A stretch of 64,000 nucleotides of DNA. It comes from a bacterium (GTDB lineage Bacteria > RBG-13-61-14 > DATKZS01). The position numbers and the translations under genes were made by a program. The stretch is taken from contig CAXXFL010000006.1 in assembly GCA_963674965.2 (NCBI GenBank), positions 896,001-960,000 on the forward strand, in the 5' to 3' direction. The notes below the pieces were generated by a model. It worked only from the letters and a program-made list of their open reading frames with translations, had not been told where the DNA came from and made no database searches. Below, piece by piece: positions 682-8,292 of this stretch (positions are counted from its first letter, which is position 1; each line of letters begins with the position of its first letter).

Positions 682-1268
682 ACCTCCCAGATATGCGCTT
701 AAAACTGATCCCTGGCCTTCACGACACGAAAAGGCGCAGGGAGAACAAGCAAAGCTTTCCCCTTCGGTCAAAATAGCCGGGATAAATAAATTGGATTTTC
801 GATCTCCGCTCATGCCCCAAATTACAAGCCTCGCGTCCGAAGACTCTCCCCAAGAGTCAAGACTGGACTTTAACCGCCGTAAATGAACTGGACGGCTCTT
901 TTCCGTTCCTTATTATTAATGGTGAGCATTCAGGAGGGCTTGTGTCGGTCTTGGTGCTGTTGTTCCCCCCACGCACTTATAACTTATATTTATATAACTT
1001 GATCGCGAATCGTAGCAAAATGTTGTAATCAAGTCAAGATAGAATATTTGAAAAGATTGTGCCAACCTAAATTGTGTTACCAATACAGATAGTTATAATT
1101 TATTAGAAACCCCTGGTCTGCGCCTTCAAGAGCAATGTCTTGATAAGATACTGTCACTGCTGTTTGAATGTATAAGTGCCCTGTTCAAGGTAATGCGAGC
1201 CTCCCCGCGGTTAAAATGGAGTATCAGGCTTTTTAAGGCCGTCACCCAAACCAGACAAGGAGGCTTGC

Positions 1269-2294
1269 ATGAAAGATTATCATTATGTTGGGTTGGATGT
1301 CCACAAGAAGAGCATTGCTTTTTGTGTGAAGGAGGCGGACGGTCGGATCGTTGAGGAGGGCGAGATCGGGGCTACCCGTCGGGAGTTGGCGGCGTGGGCC
1401 GAGGGTCGAGATCGGGCGTGGAACGGGGCCATGGAGGCGACGATGTTCACGGGTTGGATCTACGATTTTCTTTTGCCTTACGCTGAGGACCTCAAGGTGG
1501 GTCACTCGTACATGTTGCGGGCGATTTGCGCGTCGAAGAAGAAGAACGACCGGGTTGACGCTCGCAAACTGGCCGACACCCTTCGCTGCGACTGGTTTCC
1601 CGAGTGCCACATGGCGCCGCCGGAGATTCGCGAGCTGCGCCGGGTCTTGCGCTACCGCAACTTGCTGGTTCGGGAGGCGGCCAAGCTCAAGACCAAGACG
1701 GCGGGACTGTTGATGGAGGTCGGGGCCGAATACGACAAGAATCGGCTCCATGGCGAGCGCTATTTCGAGGCCCTGCTCGGGAGTTTGGAAGACGTGCCGG
1801 ACTCGGTAGTTGAGTTGCTCGAGTTGACCCATTCGGGGATGAGGATTTTCGAGACGAATCAGAAACGGCTGGTTAACGCCTTGGTCGAACACCCGGTCCT
1901 GGCCGAGAGGGTAAAGCGGTTGATGACGATCCCCGGGGTTGGACAAGTAACCGCTCTGACCTGGGCGCTCGAAATCGGCGACCCGCATCGCTTCACTTCC
2001 GTGAAAAAAGCGCAGAGCTATTGCGGCCTGTGCAGCGCCCAAAACGAATCGGCGGGCAAGAGCAAACGCGGTCCGTTGTCCAAGCAGCGCAACAAACATC
2101 TTCAAACCATGCTGGTCGAGGCGGCCAAGCTCGCGCCTCGATATAACTCCCAGTTAGCGGAGGTTCACGAAAAAGCCCGGGCCGGAGGCGCTAACCGCAA
2201 CCGCGCCACTCTGGCCGTGGCCCGCAAACTGGTGGCGTACTTGTTGTGCGTGGATAAAACCGTGAGGCCCTTTGTGATGGCCGACGAAAATTAA
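1269..2294 (+). CDS. IS110-family recombinase/transposase
   Basis: DEDD RuvC-like motifs YVGLDVHK, MEAT, KNDRVDA; TIPGVG; YCGL..NESAGK serine motif; LAVARKL C-terminus; AAGGAGG RBS. Confidence 0.96.
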   Translation: MKDYHYVGLDVHKKSIAFCVKEADGRIVEEGEIGATRRELAAWAEGRDRAWNGAMEATMFTGWIYDFLLPYAEDLKVGHSYMLRAICASKKKNDRVDARKLADTLRCDWFPECHMAPPEIRELRRVLRYRNLLVREAAKLKTKTAGLLMEVGAEYDKNRLHGERYFEALLGSLEDVPDSVVELLELTHSGMRIFETNQKRLVNALVEHPVLAERVKRLMTIPGVGQVTALTWALEIGDPHRFTSVKKAQSYCGLCSAQNESAGKSKRGPLSKQRNKHLQTMLVEAAKLAPRYNSQLAEVHEKARAGGANRNRATLAVARKLVAYLLCVDKTVRPFVMADEN

Positions 2295-2311
2295 TCTCCG
2301 ATCGCGCGCCA

Positions 2312-2490
2312 CCCGCCGGTCCTCGCCGATTTTGGACTGGGCGACCCCGCTTCGGCGGGAGATGCTCCCTTACTGCTGTTTCGAGGCCGGCGGGATGATC
2401 CAAACTCAATCTTCGGCGATGGCCCAGGCCTGATGCCGCAAATGGATGTCTGGTCGCCCTCGGGGTCGGCCAAGGTCAAGAGGCGCGGCG
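2312..2490 (+). ncRNA. IS110 bridge/seek RNA (target- and donor-binding loops); ends approximate
   Basis: Stem 2312-2325/2382-2394 encloses ATTTTGGAC (2329-2337, reverse complement of flank 3549-3557), a UUCG hairpin and ACTGCTGT (2372-2379, identical to flank 1156-1163). ATCCAAAC (2398-2405) and ATGGATGT (2442-2449) match the circle-junction donor ATGGATGTTTGAAT. Confidence 0.8.
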
Positions 2491-3547
2491 ATCGAAAAGA
2501 AAATGAGTTTATCGCTTTGAGGGCCTACGGCCGGGACGAAGAAAAAAGGGCGAAGCAAATCCGCCCCGCCCGGCCGTCTGGACACCCGCGTCGGCGCTCA
2601 GGTTGCTCTCCAGCGGAGCCCTATCCTCCGCGCGGGCAAAAAGGATGATAGCATGAGTTGATCAGCGGATAAATCGTCGATGAACGGGGAGCCTCCCACT
2701 CCCCTTGACAAACACTTATCATGGAGGTCGCCCTCGGGGTCGGCCAAGGTCAAGAGGCGCGGCGATCGAAAAGAAAATGAGTTTATCGCTTTGAGGGCCT
2801 ACGGCCGGGACGAAGAAAAAAGGGCGAAGCAAATCCGCCCCGCCCGGCCGTCTGGACACCCGCGTCGGCGCTCAGGTTGCTCTCCAGCGGAGCCCTATCC
2901 TCCGCGCGGGCAAAAAGGATGATAGCATGAGTTGATCAGCGGATAAATCGTCGATGAACGGGGAGCCTCCCACTCCCCTTGACAAACACTTATCATGGAG
3001 GTCGCCCTCGGGGTCGGCCAAGGTCAAGAGGCGCGGCGATCGAAAAGAAAATGAGTTTATCGCTTTGAGGGCCTACGGCCGGGACGAAGAAAAAAGGGCG
3101 AAGCAAATCCGCCCCGCCCGGCCGTCTGGACACCCGCGTCGGCGCTCAGGTTGCTCTCCAGCGGAGCCCTATCCTCCGCGCGGGCAAAAAGGATGATAGC
3201 ATGAGTTGATCAGCGGATAAATCGTCGATGAACGGGGAGCCTCCCACTCCCCTTGACAAACACTTATCATGGAGGTCGCCCTCGGGGTCGGCCAAGGTCA
3301 AGAGGCGCGGCGATCGAAAAGAAAATGAGTTTATCGCTTTGAGGGCCTACGGCCGGGACGAAGAAAAAAGGGCGAAGCAAATCCGCCCCGCCCGGCCGTC
3401 TGGACACCCGCGTCGGCGCTCAGGTTGCTCTCCAGCGGAGCCCTATCCTCCGCGCGGGCAAAAAGGATGATAGCATGAGTTGATCAGCGGATAAATCGTC
3501 GATGAACGGGGAGCCTCCCACTCCCCTTGACAAACACTTATCATGGA
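2452..3547 (+). repeat. Four apparently identical 274-bp tandem copies of the IS110 right end
   Basis: Units start GGTCGCCCTCGGGG at 2452, 2726, 3000, 3274 and end CCTTGACAAACACTTATCATGGA; no spacers. Confidence 0.95.
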
Positions 3548-3630
3548 TGTCCAAAATAGGACGGACCTTGCCTTTGCCCCATTATAAAACGGGGATTTAG
3601 ATGGTCAAGCTATGGGTTTTCAGGTTGAGG

Positions 3631-4251
3631 TTATCCCTTTTTGTCCCGCCGGGGCTGTCCAAGACCGCTGATGGGAAGATATAGTTGCTGGGGTTTGGGC
3701 ACGATAGGCTCCACGCCGAAGGGATTTTGCAGCCATTCCGTCAAATCCCGATAAGTAAAGAGGTTCAGCCGCGGCATGGAGGCCAGGTTCGAGAACGACC
3801 AGCCGGCCATGGATATGTAATGGAGCCACTTCAAAATAAGGATGGCGATTAAGGCTGTCCAAATCCGGATGAGCAGCGCGTTCTCGCTCGTGCCCACGAA
3901 GGACTTGATTTTGAGGTTTTGTTTCAGGGCCTTGAAGAATATCTCGATCTCCCACCGGTCCTTGTAAAGCGCGGCGGGCCGGTTTTTGTTGGCGTAGGCG
4001 AGGGGCGACTTGTTGGGGTCCTTTTTGACGCCGAGGTGGACGAGCTTGCCCATGCAGCACTTGAGTCCGTTGCAGATTTCACGCAGGGAGTCGGCCCTCG
4101 CGAGTTGGCAGAACATCATGGCCACGAACTGGTCCCAGCAGGTGAAGCCCTTGGCCTTGTACTCGGCGTTGTTTTTCCTGACCAGGGCCGCGAACTCGGA
4201 GCGGGGAAAATGTTTCAATACTTGACTGAACAGGCTGGATACGCGTACCAT
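3631..4251 (-). pseudogene. IS4-family transposase with in-frame internal deletion
   Basis: DUF4372-like N-terminus (SLFSQVL..FTCWDQFVAMMFCQL..SLREI) runs directly into the IS4 signature Y-K-D-R-W-E-I-E-I-F-F-K; only 206 aa, the central DD region is missing. Confidence 0.85.
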
Positions 4252-4325
4252 AGTTTAGTCCTCCTTGTTGCCATGGATTTTTGTGTAATAAAAGTATCCC
4301 ACGGCATGGAGGACTTTTCATTTAA

Positions 4326-5668
4326 GGATCAACGTATTTAAGTATGGGTATATTTAGCATGGAAAGCGCCCCTTATCTTTAGGAAGAAGTATTCCATGTC
4401 CCTGAAGCCGAAGGCAATGCGCTTTATCACCTTGATCTTGTTGTTCACTCCCTCGATGAGGCTGGTGTGAATAGGATAACGGCAATGAGAGATGAGACCG
4501 GGCATGTGATCCTTGAGCTTCTTGGCGAATTTCTTCAAAGCGTCGATCCGCGATCTCATCGCTCGATGATACCAGTTCATCAGCCACTTGCGCGACCAAG
4601 CCTCGCTTTTATACCTCCAGATCTGCTTGAGGTCGTCCTTAAGAACATAGACTTTGAAAAGCTTGCGGTTAAGCCGGAGGAGATCGGCCAACCGAACGTG
4701 CTCGCCCCTTTCCACGTCAAGGTTCGAGGCGTTTTTAAGAAGCAGGTAGCGGCTGCCCTTGATGGCTTCCTTGCGTTCGCCTCGGGCCATCCTGAATTCC
4801 TGGACCCGGACCTTGTCCACCACCTCGCGTCCGTAAGCCGAAATGACGTGGAAGGGATCGTAAACTATCGCGGCGTTAGGGCAATGCTCGCGAGTGGCCT
4901 CCTCATAAGGCTTCCACATGTCCATGGCCACCGCCTCGATCTTCTCGCACTTTTCCGGCCCCAGGGCCTCGTAAAAAAAGGACAGGCTCTCCTTGGTCCG
5001 GTCCAGGCCGATGTAGGGGATTTCACCGCTCTTGAAGTCGATCACGGCCGTGGCGTAGCGATGGCGGCGGCGGATGGAAAACTCGTCCACGCCGATGACG
5101 GTGGGAGAAGCCTCGGACGGATCGGGCACTCGCTCATCCAGCGCGGCCTTGTCTATGGCCTTGACCGTCTTCTCGTGGAGGCCGTACTGCTCGGCAACGG
5201 CCTTAAGGCTACGAATCTCCTCGCAGGCCAAAGCCACCTCGGCGGCAAGACGTTTCGAGTACTCGACCCGGGGAAGCGTCCACTCGAGGCTCTCGGTGAC
5301 CACTCCGCAGTCGGGGCAATCAACGCGGACCTGATAGAAAAAAAGGTAACTCCGCTTGAAGACGCCGTAGGAAAGATCACGGACGCAACGTTCGTCGCAG
5401 TCGTAATACGCGCTGAACTCCCTGCCGCATCTGCACTTGTAAACGTTGCGATCGCGCGAAAGCTCGATCATCAGGCTGGGGAATTCATCTCCCTCCCAAG
5501 TATGAGTGCTGACCCGATGAACGGAAAAACCTGGAATGTTGACCATAATATCGATATAATCCTTTTTGACCGCCATCTCGTCCTCCTTGTTTTGGTGCTT
5601 TTTGCTAAAACTACTCTGACAAAGAGAACGGGGGCGGTCAATTCACCCACACTAAATTACGTAGAACC
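4326..5668 (-). mobile_element. ISL3-family insertion sequence
   Basis: Termini GGATCAACGTATTTAAGTATGGGT and GGTTCTACGTAATTTAGTGTGGGT (19/24 IR); 8-bp direct repeat TCATTTAA at 4318-4325 and 5669-5676. Confidence 0.93.
4338..5576 (-). CDS. ISL3-family transposase
   Basis: Zn finger CRCG..CPDC; IGVDEF; VAMDMWKPY; YDPFHV; IEGVNNKIKVIKRIAFGFRD. Confidence 0.95.
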   Translation of the reverse strand: MAVKKDYIDIMVNIPGFSVHRVSTHTWEGDEFPSLMIELSRDRNVYKCRCGREFSAYYDCDERCVRDLSYGVFKRSYLFFYQVRVDCPDCGVVTESLEWTLPRVEYSKRLAAEVALACEEIRSLKAVAEQYGLHEKTVKAIDKAALDERVPDPSEASPTVIGVDEFSIRRRHRYATAVIDFKSGEIPYIGLDRTKESLSFFYEALGPEKCEKIEAVAMDMWKPYEEATREHCPNAAIVYDPFHVISAYGREVVDKVRVQEFRMARGERKEAIKGSRYLLLKNASNLDVERGEHVRLADLLRLNRKLFKVYVLKDDLKQIWRYKSEAWSRKWLMNWYHRAMRSRIDALKKFAKKLKDHMPGLISHCRYPIHTSLIEGVNNKIKVIKRIAFGFRDMEYFFLKIRGAFHAKYTHT

Positions 5669-5889
5669 TCATTTAAAAGCTATCTTGGACAAGAGTGAGA
5701 TACTGTATTATTTTTTCTTTCTTCTCTGGAAAAATATTTATTATTGGGTCATATAATGCCGCTAAAATCAAGAAATGTTATAGACAAAATGAGTCACATG
5801 CGTCCGCCTTTTTGCAATGCTCGATAAATTCCGTTAACTCAGATATCACTTGTCCTCTTACTCTTGCCAAGCCCTCAAAAGTCATCATG

Positions 5890-6828
5890 CTATTTCGCAA
5901 AGGGCACGGATAAACGCTCCGCCAGTTCCAATGCATCCGCGGGCCAGAACCTCTCGGTCCGAGGATGGCGCACATTCCGCCGTCCAAACGCGGGGCGGCA
6001 TTCGAGCAGGGACTCGACCCATTGGGTGGGGAGCGAGTTCCGGCCATGCACCGCGCCCAACAGCGCGCCACAGATGGCGGCGTTGGTGTCGGTATCTCCG
6101 CCTCGCATAACGGTGTCAACGACGGCTTCCTCCAGGTTCGGGGCGTGCGGAAGCTGCCACAGGGCGTTTCCGAATGCCGTCAGTACCCACCCCTGTTGGT
6201 GGACATAGTCGGCGGGCGGCGCGTCGGCCGCTCTTCGGACAGCATCAAGGAGACTTTCATCCACCTCCATGCCTTCCGACCAGGTCACGATCTGCTCATA
6301 CAGATTTCGGCCATCGCACCCCGAGTGGATGGCATGGGCAATCGCCATCGTGAACAATGCGTTGGCTTGCTGGCAAACCGGATGGGGATGGGTGATCGCG
6401 GCATCCTGTCGCGCCCACTCGGCCACATGCTTCAAATCATGGTTGGCTCCGAAGATGCCGAGCGGACTGATCCGCATCATCGCGCCGTTGGCCTGGCTGT
6501 CCGGATTGGGACGACCCCGCAGACCACCGGCGACGGTCATGCCACAATCGAACGGCCCGGAGTCCAGCCAGAAGATGTACGCTTTCCTGGCTTCAGCGGG
6601 ATCGTACTTTCCCCGCTCGGAAAGCATGCGGGCCAGGGAGAGGGCCATCTCGGAATCATCGGTCGGTTGTCCGGCAATCGTGTCCCAGGCGCCTCCGTCG
6701 GCAAGCTCCCTCACTCCGTCGGGGTATTCCCGTCGGATGTCCTCCGGAGTTCGAAACTCGACCAGGCCGCCCAGCGCGTCTCCGGCAAGCTGTCCAAGGA
6801 GACAGCCTTGGGCGCGTTCAACTTGCAT
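5890..6828 (-). CDS. ADP-ribosylglycohydrolase (DraG/ARH family)
   Basis: GCLLGQLAGDALG, PTDDSEM, ANGAMMR, ITHPHP, GGDTDTNAAICGALLGA. Confidence 0.93.
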   Translation of the reverse strand: MQVERAQGCLLGQLAGDALGGLVEFRTPEDIRREYPDGVRELADGGAWDTIAGQPTDDSEMALSLARMLSERGKYDPAEARKAYIFWLDSGPFDCGMTVAGGLRGRPNPDSQANGAMMRISPLGIFGANHDLKHVAEWARQDAAITHPHPVCQQANALFTMAIAHAIHSGCDGRNLYEQIVTWSEGMEVDESLLDAVRRAADAPPADYVHQQGWVLTAFGNALWQLPHAPNLEEAVVDTVMRGGDTDTNAAICGALLGAVHGRNSLPTQWVESLLECRPAFGRRNVRHPRTERFWPADALELAERLSVPFAK

Positions 6829-7048
6829 GGGATATCTCCATAAATTCTAAAAGTCGCCGTCAGACTGTCGAAATTCAGATTGGCCCGCGGACCCTGACTG
6901 AATTGAAGGCTCAATGCCCATTAGTCAGCGCGGCGAACAATAATTTCTGAGCCGCTCGAGCGATGAAAGTCTAGTCGAAATCACTGATCGAAGTCAAGGA
7001 GGACGATGGAAAAGAATAAGTTGTCCTCGTATATTTTTTCATTCCATC

Positions 7049-7240
7049 TTATTCATCCGGCAGAACAAGCGTCCAAATACGTTTGAGAGGCAATTCGGCC
7101 TGGATGTCTTCTGAAAGTTTTTCATAGTGAGCAAAAAGCGCGTCCATTAAATCTTCAGAATCCCATAGACGAATCTGGAAAAATATCTGCCTTGACTCCG
7201 TTTCCACGTTTCCTTTAAAGCCTCCCCGACCACAACTGTC
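7049..7240 (-). pseudogene. C-terminal remnant of an Mrr-like restriction endonuclease
   Basis: GGFK..RQIFFQIRLWDSEDLMDALFAHYEKLSEDIQAELPLKRIWTLV resembles Mrr-family C-termini; upstream part of the ORF looks unrelated. Confidence 0.6.
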
Positions 7241-7401
7241 ATTATAACCACTCTCTATTCGACAACATGTCCCTTTTTGCTTTTCATCCTCAACTCCCCA
7301 ATACGGTAATTTTAATAGCGACTTCATGTAGCATGAGCAGTCAATACCGCCAATCTGATCCCAAAGTATTAAATATTATTTCATGATCATTATCTATTTG
7401 T

Positions 7402-8292
7402 CTATCCCTGTTTCTCATAGCTAGACCGAATATGATCCAGAAGCTCATCTTTATTGCAACGATTTGATTCGAAGAACAGCGAAGCCTCCTTGAGCAGGTT
7501 CCCAACAATCGGACCAGGTGCAATGTGCAACATATCAATGATATCGCGTCCTGTTACTGGAATAACAATACAATTTTCATCAAGGAGAGCTTTTTCGATC
7601 AGGAGAATGGCTTCGTGCTCAAAATCGAAACCATCATCCAAAATTTCAAGCTGTTTACGCCAGCGGTTAATATATCGGTTGCGGAATGCGACGGTGTTAA
7701 GCGCTTCCCTCCCGAGTTGACGCTTTGAATCTTCAATGAGCGGATCGAACGATGCAGCTGGCCAACTGCGAGCCAGGCGTCGGTTCCAGTCTTCAATTTT
7801 ATCTTTAGCGTTATCACCATCGGACTCTATTTGCCTCACAATAGTTTCAATACCGCCCAGGAATTCGACCGCATCCTCGATAAGATGATTGTAACATTCG
7901 AGCCAATGCTCTGCTTTTTCTGGTATGGCAGTGCCGCATGACTTCCGACGCCACAATTCGGCGACCGTTCTAGCTTGCTGATCAGAGTCGGCAAATCCAA
8001 GATTATGATGAAGTTCGGTCCGGAGACATCGCACCGCTTCGAGGTGTTGGTCAGTCCGATCACGATCCATTACATGATTAGTTTCACCAATACGCCTAAG
8101 GAATAATATACTTACTCGGCCCCCTTCGTAATAAAGACAGTATAGCCAAGATGTAGCTCTTATAAATGCGGGTTCAGGACAAATAGGATCTGGCAACATC
8201 ACATGAATCTCTTCAAAAGCAGAGCGCCCAATAAGACTTCTGCTAAGCGCGTTAATGCGCTGATGGTGGCGAAGAATATCTTCGAAGCTCAT
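7402..8292 (-). CDS. Uncharacterised protein: possible HEPN-like RxxxxH region plus CCA-adding-enzyme-like C-terminal tail
   Basis: RCLRTELHH; C-terminal IPVTGRDIIDMLHIAPGPIVGNLLKEA..KDELLDHI; ATGA overlap with upstream gene. Confidence 0.55.
   Translation of the reverse strand: MSFEDILRHHQRINALSRSLIGRSAFEEIHVMLPDPICPEPAFIRATSWLYCLYYEGGRVSILFLRRIGETNHVMDRDRTDQHLEAVRCLRTELHHNLGFADSDQQARTVAELWRRKSCGTAIPEKAEHWLECYNHLIEDAVEFLGGIETIVRQIESDGDNAKDKIEDWNRRLARSWPAASFDPLIEDSKRQLGREALNTVAFRNRYINRWRKQLEILDDGFDFEHEAILLIEKALLDENCIVIPVTGRDIIDMLHIAPGPIVGNLLKEASLFFESNRCNKDELLDHIRSSYEKQG

Follow-up and report, generated by a model that had tools for sequence, protein, structure and literature searches.

IS4321 and IS5075 belong to the IS1111 family and, as Partridge and Hall reportedly described in 2003, use the terminal inverted repeats of another transposon as insertion sites. 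Both elements target Tn21-family (Tn3-type) transposons carried by enterobacterial plasmids, in the 38-bp repeats. Hiraizumi and colleagues are said to have studied the bridge RNA of IS621 in 2024. This RNA was shown to be bispecific, with a target loop and a donor loop; it is encoded in the left end of the element upstream of the gene, and its core is CT (Durrant et al., 2024, PMC11208160). In the IS1111 group, elements with a 3' seekRNA include ISEc11, ISKpn4, ISPst6, and ISPa11, according to the available part of a second paper (Siddiquee et al., 2024, PMC11187229). Traits of the group named there are non-coding sequence 3' of the gene and subterminal repeats about 11-13 bp long, beyond which the ends extend by 7 bp (left) and 3 bp (right) (PMC11187229). 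Modular loci have been described as well. ISPpu9/MITEPpu9 is an earlier modular case in the excerpted text of PMC12288879, and the accessible portions of two preprints describe half-match recombination (bioRxiv 10.64898/2026.08.14.744561; 10.64898/2026.08.31.748434).

The window (the whole stretch of DNA that was analyzed, 64,000 nucleotides) carries at 1161-3547, on the plus strand, an IS110-family insertion sequence of the IS1111 type. The element is 2387 bp long and would measure 1565 bp with a single right-end unit. It very probably chooses its insertion site by means of a seekRNA (bridge RNA) encoded just 3' of the transposase gene. The features of the locus are as follows.

1146-1154, no strand assigned: target duplication of the IS4-like host element (AGATACTGT, 9 bp), left copy; right copy at 5698-5706
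1155-1160, plus strand: left target half CACTGC, the 6 bp at the outer tip of the IS4-like terminal inverted repeat, as read from the empty sites CACTGCTGTCCAAAATAGGACGG
1161-3547, plus strand: IS1111-type element, delimited by empty sites elsewhere in the genome and by a 1576-nt metagenome contig that is its single-unit form
1161-1178, plus strand: left end, with the 7-bp extension TGTTTGA followed by the subterminal inverted repeat ATGTATAAGTG (1168-1178)
1269-2294, plus strand: 341-aa transposase/recombinase that combines a DEDD RuvC-like domain with a Ser domain at the C terminus (PF01548, PF02371, NF033542)
2312-2394, plus strand: target-binding domain of the predicted seekRNA/bridge RNA, with compensatory changes at 11 of 13 stem pairs and guide-flank covariation
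2395-2455, plus strand: second (donor-type) domain, with a 5' strand, a hairpin (2414-2438; compensatory changes at 7 of 7 pairs), and a 3' strand
2452-3547, plus strand: four right-end units of 274 bp in tandem (99% matches, 4.0 copies, and period 274 in Tandem Repeats Finder)
3527-3547, plus strand: right terminus, with a -35-like TTGACA (3527-3532), the subterminal repeat CACTTATCAT (3535-3544), and the 3-bp extension GGA
3548-3557, plus strand: right target half TGT CCAAAAT, within the IS4-like inverted repeat, known from the empty sites and the guide complement
3548-5697, minus strand: rest of the IS4-like deletion derivative, with a 206-aa open reading frame (3631-4251) and the other inverted repeat (5679-5697)

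The boundaries of the element are proven by intact copies of its target that differ in their outer flanks. The intact 23-mer CACTGCTGTCCAAAATAGGACGG occurs at four other places in the 6.5-Mb genome, with a different outer flank at each, and the 15-mer target ACTGCTGTCCAAAAT at five other places, all of them empty. On the left, the target half is followed by TGT (1161-1163) and then by TTGAATG, the left end of the element, from 1164. On the right, the element finishes with ...ATCATGGA at 3547, and TGT (3548-3550) and CCAAAAT (3551-3557) follow. The target halves that flank the element read ACTGC / TGTCCAAAAT, and the element entered the IS4-like terminal repeat 6 bp from the repeat's tip, beside a TGT present on both sides. 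In relatives, the left junction is always TGT, while the first base of the right-hand NGT is G, A, or C in 5 of the 38 copies of a Bryobacterales relative. This agrees with the left TGT being part of the element and with no target bases being duplicated; the 7-bp length of the left extension holds if this TGT is counted as element. The left end TGTTTGAATGYATAAGT is kept in relatives. The two subterminal repeats agree at 10 of 11 positions with one indel, and relatives have the same layout; these repeats and those of the IS4-like host were read by eye, and an inverted-repeat search of 1000-8000 did not list them. Upstream of the gene, 105 nt (1164-1268) are non-coding; downstream, 1253 nt are, a length that a single unit would reduce to 431 nt.

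The host of the insertion is a 0.8-kb deletion derivative (relic) of an IS4-family element. Its 206-aa open reading frame matches DUF4372 and the tail of the DDE domain in Pfam, and reaches 88 bits with NF033592, below the cutoff. Genome-wide, the eight matches to IS4-type transposase never extended beyond 206 aa of the query and were truncated copies only. An earlier, sequence-only reading of this DNA had given the target as ACTGC-TGT-CCAAAAT together with the element's ends, and had placed the insertion in the terminal inverted repeat of an IS4-family element; all of this was located where that reading had put it. The same is true of its remark that the other IS4 repeat departs from the target at three positions, seen at 5679-5697 as 3 of 15 target positions. 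A complete ISL3-family element lies near that other end of the relic, at 4326-5668. It encodes a 412-aa transposase (4338-5576, minus strand; NF033550, 294 bits) and is flanked by the 8-bp duplication TCATTTAA at 4318-4325 and 5669-5676.

The transposase of the IS1111-type element matches PF01548 (DEDD_Tnp_IS110) at 2.6e-15 and PF02371 (Transposase_20) at 8e-22, and scores 192.4 bits against a cutoff of 140 with the NCBIfam model NF033542, "IS110 family RNA-guided transposase". The reading frame is intact and the catalytic residues are kept: D10, E56, D94, D97, and the Ser of GLCSAQNESA align to the ISCro4 and IS621 structures. Similarity to the IS621 protein is weak (E 5e-8), identity to an ISEc11-family match is about 30% over part of the transposase, and protein matches from enterobacterial plasmids share only about 37% identity with it over 22% of its length. 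Compared with the IS1111 consensus GL-P----S(t)G, the C-terminal motif GLCSAQNESA keeps GL and Ser and changes P to S and G to A; the length of 341 aa falls within 330-350. At this place in the motif, an occasional TA is mentioned in the excerpted text of PMC11187229. The layout traits of IS1111 elements are mostly present, namely the downstream non-coding region, the subterminal repeats, the 7 + 3 bp extensions, the protein length, and the order of the guides. Judged by this layout, the element is an IS1111-type, and not an IS110-type, member of the IS110 family; among the RNA-guided insertion sequences of the known IS1111 group it is an ordinary one. Its earlier description as an RNA-guided IS110-family element is backed by the protein domains, the covariation of the guides, and the conserved fold; the family assignment was retained, and the narrower IS110 type gave way to IS1111. 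The same genome hosts three further IS110-family lineages on several contigs (L008-L022), present in 1, 4, and 10 copies and 30%, 29%, and 26% identical to this transposase, respectively.

The region of the predicted RNA (2312-2455) lies 3' of the transposase stop at 2294, unlike the IS621-type placement. In its target domain, a closing stem pairs 2312-2325 with 2382-2394 and encloses the UUCG hairpin CCCGC-TTCG-GCGGG at about 2347-2360. The two target guides are placed in the internal loop closed by this stem, whose pairs show compensatory changes. The 5' guide ATTTTGGAC (2329-2337) has its top-strand complement at 3549-3557, and these two sites are the sole matches to the word in 64 kb (0.55 expected). 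The 3' guide ACTGCTGT (2372-2379) is identical to the top strand at 1156-1163. From the per-base word rates in 64 kb, the probability that both target words fall by chance on the plus strand of the 431-nt non-coding region was estimated at about 6e-6. Rfam covariance models run over 1000-3700 on both strands gave no match at E <= 1.

Relatives of the element were collected by a scan of genomes (79 loci) and a scan of metagenomes (80 loci), 159 loci in total, with transposases 57-72% identical. These scans found no near-identical copy, the best relatives being 72% identical. The 3' regions of the relatives share an architecture that consists of a GC stem, a variable stretch ending in a GGGAC-like motif, a hairpin, a second variable stretch, an invariant TGTTT, the closing stem strand, ..CCAAACTCAATCTTC, a second hairpin, and ..AATGGATGTCTGGTC. 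In an alignment of 30 lineages, compensatory changes were found at 24 of the 33 predicted pairs, and 94.7% of cells were paired. None of 500 shuffles reached any of five fold measures, and controls with slid positions gave covariation scores of 0.06-0.10 vs 0.416 observed. By this comparison of sequences, the predicted RNA was shown to have a conserved fold made of the closing stem and two hairpins. Folding the sequence by itself over 2295-2480 and 2295-2730 gave results no better than shuffles (z 0.14 and -0.67, respectively), so the structural support comes from the comparative analysis only; of the folding that had been suggested for the 3' region, it is the form based on 30 lineages that was informative. 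A candidate helix between the two strands of the donor loop was set aside, with compensatory changes at none of its six predicted pairs.

The distribution of the element bears on whether it still moves. One full copy is present in the 6.5-Mb genome, and a DNA search of this genome otherwise gave two right-end fragments only. With a single copy and five empty perfect targets, activity in this genome is unproven. A near-identical variant comes from a microbial-mat metagenome of another study (run X3), in which a 1576-nt contig covers 1155-2712 with 38 differences (97.6% identical). This contig consists of the single-unit element plus 6 + 5 flank bases, starts exactly with CACTGC, and ends ...ATGGATGTCC / ...ATCATGGATGTCC. 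There is no difference within 2312-2518, and the guides are unchanged; the gene carries 25 differences, 16 synonymous and 9 non-synonymous. This pattern of substitutions points to recent purifying selection on both the protein and the putative RNA. The contig also points to the same insertion site in a second sample, as far as its 11 shared flank bases reach; it stops at TGTCC, and another continuation is possible in some copies.

An immobile relic would account for part of this picture. The element would have arrived once, by transfer or in an old event, and would no longer move, leaving the guide matches as fossils of a past specificity. The single copy among empty perfect sites would fit such a history, as would the lack of any further copy in the 10 other genomes of the order that were searched and the rearrangement of the right end into a four-fold array. 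Against it stand the intact reading frame with its catalytic residues, the excess of synonymous over non-synonymous changes in the 97.6% variant with none at all in 2312-2518, and the intact right terminus kept by the last unit of the array. On balance, immobility is an unlikely explanation, though one that deserves some weight.

The right end itself was revised by the analysis. Where 2295-2725 had been taken as the whole right end, Tandem Repeats Finder shows the 4 x 274 bp array. Every unit finishes at the right terminus ...CACTTATCATGGA, with TTGACA 15 nt from the unit end, and the junction between units, ATGGA/GGTCGCC, is the same at all three places. The four-fold array is probably real, because the unitig depth of the unit relative to the unique part was 84.2 vs 21.2 and 61.8 vs 17.2 in two runs in which the entire stretch is present (ratios of about 4.0 and 3.6) and because a contig spans the unit junction.

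Similar arrays are found in the 61%-identical relative in one Bryobacterales MAG. In 9 of its 38 copies, right-end arrays occur with periods of 142, 330, and about 610-615 bp, with up to 12 units in one copy (L096). All junctions of these arrays join right end-TGT-C.. to an internal TGTC site, and three such internal sites were used: one provided by the DNA of the donor 3' strand, another upstream of the target loop, and the third within the gene. The junction in the window lacks the TGTCT seen at the corresponding junction of the relative, so that a recombinase origin of the window's array is proposed rather than read directly from the sequence. The junction fits the scheme of the relative if the internal site is CT/GGT/CGCC at 2452. 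Most likely, the recombinase would then have made "half-match" joins that link the right terminus to an internal NGTC (here GGTC at 2452), and amplification would have expanded the product into the array. By analogy, right-end arrays of this kind fit the half-match recombination of the 2026 preprints.

Alternatively, the recombinase would have had no part in the array, which would be due to faulty assembly or to slippage during replication. The absence from ATGGA/GGTCGCC of the TGT that marks the relative's junctions is compatible with this origin, three identical junctions are expected from amplification by homologous exchange, and the check was made on contigs rather than raw reads. Against it stand the depth ratios of about 4.0 and 3.6 in two runs, the junction-spanning contig, and the exact end of all units at the right terminus. 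The relative's own right junctions include GGT, AGT, and CGT in the 5 copies mentioned above, and a right terminus followed by GGT and C falls within this range. In addition, one preprint describes arrays of this sort as common (n = 468): non-coding units repeated in tandem next to IS110 transposases, with boundaries of the left-donor-only type (bioRxiv 10.64898/2026.08.14.744561). An origin unrelated to the recombinase is accordingly given a low probability, similar to that of immobility, and half-match joining is the preferred reading.

Other rearrangements of right ends were observed beside these arrays. Two solo right-end fragments of this or a related element, both lacking the transposase gene, are present in the same genome. 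The first (L005, C1 about 8188-8290) is 94% identical over 94 nt and finishes ...CTTATCATGGA-TGT-CGACC. The second (L006, C6 486958-487190) is 76% identical, is flanked by the 17-bp direct repeat ATGGATGTCCCCAGATC, and is like a reinserted right-end module. In one Bryobacterales copy (L080, about 5170-5250), the 3' target-guide end ...TATCTC-TGT is fused to the 5' guide TGTTGGGGAC, with about 66 nt duplicated in the target loop; this duplication looks like recombination between the two guide-encoding TGT sites. In another lineage (L109), what had seemed a right-end array proved to be a false pattern match.

The central evidence for RNA guidance is the covariation between guides and flanks. A collection of homologs and a test of this covariation had been suggested by the sequence-only reading, and both were carried out. 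In 21 lineages with readable ends, an offset-free best-match score was compared between cognate and non-cognate flanks. On the left, the cognate mean was 3.81/6 vs 1.64 for non-cognate flanks; on the right, it was 9.05/12 vs 6.89. On either side, 0 of 20,000 permutations reached the cognate value. The window's own element scores 5/6 on the left and 11/12 on the right. The 5' guide was also found to follow the NGT beside the right end, with TGA and GGGTC in L037, TGC and GGGGGC in L097, and TAT and GGAT in L110. As far as comparison of sequences can establish it, the two target guides are firmly supported by this covariation, and they are the words that had been picked out in the window beforehand; the enclosing GC stem, the UUCG hairpin, and all four proposed guide words likewise lie where they had been described. 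Recognition of the site mainly by protein-DNA contacts or DNA structure, with incidental RNA complementarity, could draw on the TGTC common to the sites of all relatives, on the many targets that look palindromic (e.g., L046, L100, and L101), and on the poor fit of the Bryobacterales left flank to its guide (1/6 in L052, with only C at -1 conserved), but it is highly improbable in view of the joint covariation of both variable guide segments and of the seekRNA reprogramming shown experimentally for ISEc11 in the excerpted text of PMC11187229.

Of the two donor-side guides, the one for the right end is the better supported. The donor 3' strand ATGGATGT (2442-2449) matches the right end plus TGT at 3543-3550 in 8 of 8 positions. 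This strand covaries with the right terminus, with ATAGA in both places in L037, L094, L109, L111, and L157; L047 and L071 (a Bryobacterales copy) are exceptions. The donor 5' strand ATCCAAAC (2398-2405) is complementary to 1162-1169 in 7 of 8 positions, and no covariation between this strand and the left end was detected across the 60 lineages in which both are readable. The strand varies (CAAAC, CTAAC, CTGAC, CACAC, and others) while the left end is constant (TGTTTGAATG). An 82-nt seekRNA with the target matches alone was sufficient for ISEc11, according to the available part of the paper (Siddiquee et al., 2024, PMC11187229). Because covariation is lacking in 60 lineages and this short seekRNA was enough, the left-end guide may not be needed in the IS1111 group. 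The earlier claim that all four guides had been identified thus holds for the two target guides and the right-end donor guide and not for the left-end donor guide. Both 3' strands were also observed to fit the junctions formed by insertion better than the substrates. The match of 2372-2381 is 10/10 with the left junction (1156-1165) and 8/10 with the substrate, and that of 2442-2450 is 9/9 with the right junction (3543-3551) and 8/9 with the substrate. By analogy, this better fit recalls the handshake guides of IS621.

Transcription, processing of the RNA, the promoter, and the point of strand exchange are proposed as follows. The RNA (about 2312-2455) would be read with or after the transposase mRNA. 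Its transcription would most likely be driven by a promoter at the circle junction, in which TTGACA of the right end, an 18-nt spacer, and TGT-TTGAAT of the left end come together. The candidate parts are the -35 TTGACA (3527-3532), 15 nt of right end plus TGT, and an extended -10 TTGAAT (1164-1169). Among 53 distinct right-end tails, 44 have TTGAC at a distance of 14-15 nt from the right end, and a 45th has it at 19 nt. For the first loop, predicted pairing joins the 5' strand to the right target half on its top strand, GTCCAAAAT, and the 3' strand, which reads ACTGC+TGT, to the left target half on its bottom strand. The 3' strand of the second domain, identical to the element's right terminus plus TGT, would represent the donor side. 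The DEDD/Ser recombinase would then join the circle to the target in a single orientation, beside the TGT that lies 6 bp in from the tip of the IS4-like repeat.

The sequence-only reading had further called the element specialized on IS4 ends. The insertion described here and the 6 + 5 matching flank bases of the X3 contig speak for such a preference; the claim is drawn from one or two insertions, and the five other perfect sites are empty. In the Bryobacterales MAG chromosome (L052-L103), at least 38 copies of the 61%-identical relative occupy sites that share little beyond C/TGT CCCC. Specificity in this relative is therefore relaxed despite an intact target loop. A possible, if rather doubtful, scenario is that the element in the window is a hyperparasite redirected from the usual TGTCCCC-type sites of its clade to one IS4-family tip, spreading only where the IS4 element spread and disabling one IS4 end; in the same scenario, the guide-encoding DNA would serve as a recombination half-site that has repeatedly seeded right-end arrays in the clade. 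Landing in the end of another transposon is common to this element and IS4321/IS5075, and differs here in that the end belongs to an IS4-family relic. The target class, an IS4-family end, is new, and targeting of another transposon's end is precedented by IS4321/IS5075.

Among the described systems that come close to the element are the ISEc11-type IS1111 elements, as these appear in the excerpted text of PMC11187229. Shared features are the DEDD transposase of about 340 aa, the long 3' non-coding region, and the subterminal repeats with 7 + 3 bp extensions. In both, the known or predicted RNA carries the top-strand complement 5' of the bottom-strand match within a stem-closed loop. Natural re-direction among relatives and a right-end -35 box suited to a circle-junction promoter are further likenesses. 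Unlike ISEc11-type elements, the element has a distant transposase with the motif GLCSAQNESA, a 1-nt indel in the subterminal repeat, and a new target, and it is known from sequence alone. The predicted RNA resembles that of IS621 in having a target loop and a donor-type loop, with a short shared core beside the crossover. It differs from IS621 in its position 3' of the gene, the reversed order of its guides, a core other than CT, and a left-end guide that is unsupported. Like the modular IS110 loci described in the available parts of PMC12288879 (ISPpu9/MITEPpu9) and of the two preprints (bioRxiv 10.64898/2026.08.14.744561; 10.64898/2026.08.31.748434), the locus has tandem non-coding modules beside a transposase gene, each copy keeping the right (left-donor) terminus and being joined at sites with a match to only half the guide set. 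What is repeated here, unlike in those loci, is the right end of the element itself and not a separate small-RNA gene; no circles were observed here.

The kind of element is already described, and its novelty is therefore low. The current picture of IS110/IS1111 biology is unchanged by it, and thousands of other candidates exist for use as a reprogrammable tool. Its value lies in providing a clean natural example of RNA-guided retargeting in a large, uncharacterized IS1111-type clade. It adds a second kind of transposon end as a landing site, together with natural cases of half-site recombination that yield right-end arrays. With at least 21 lineages that have readable guide-flank pairs on a conserved RNA scaffold, the clade could help to define the guide rules of 3'-encoded seekRNAs, including which of the positions adjacent to the crossover are read by the guide.
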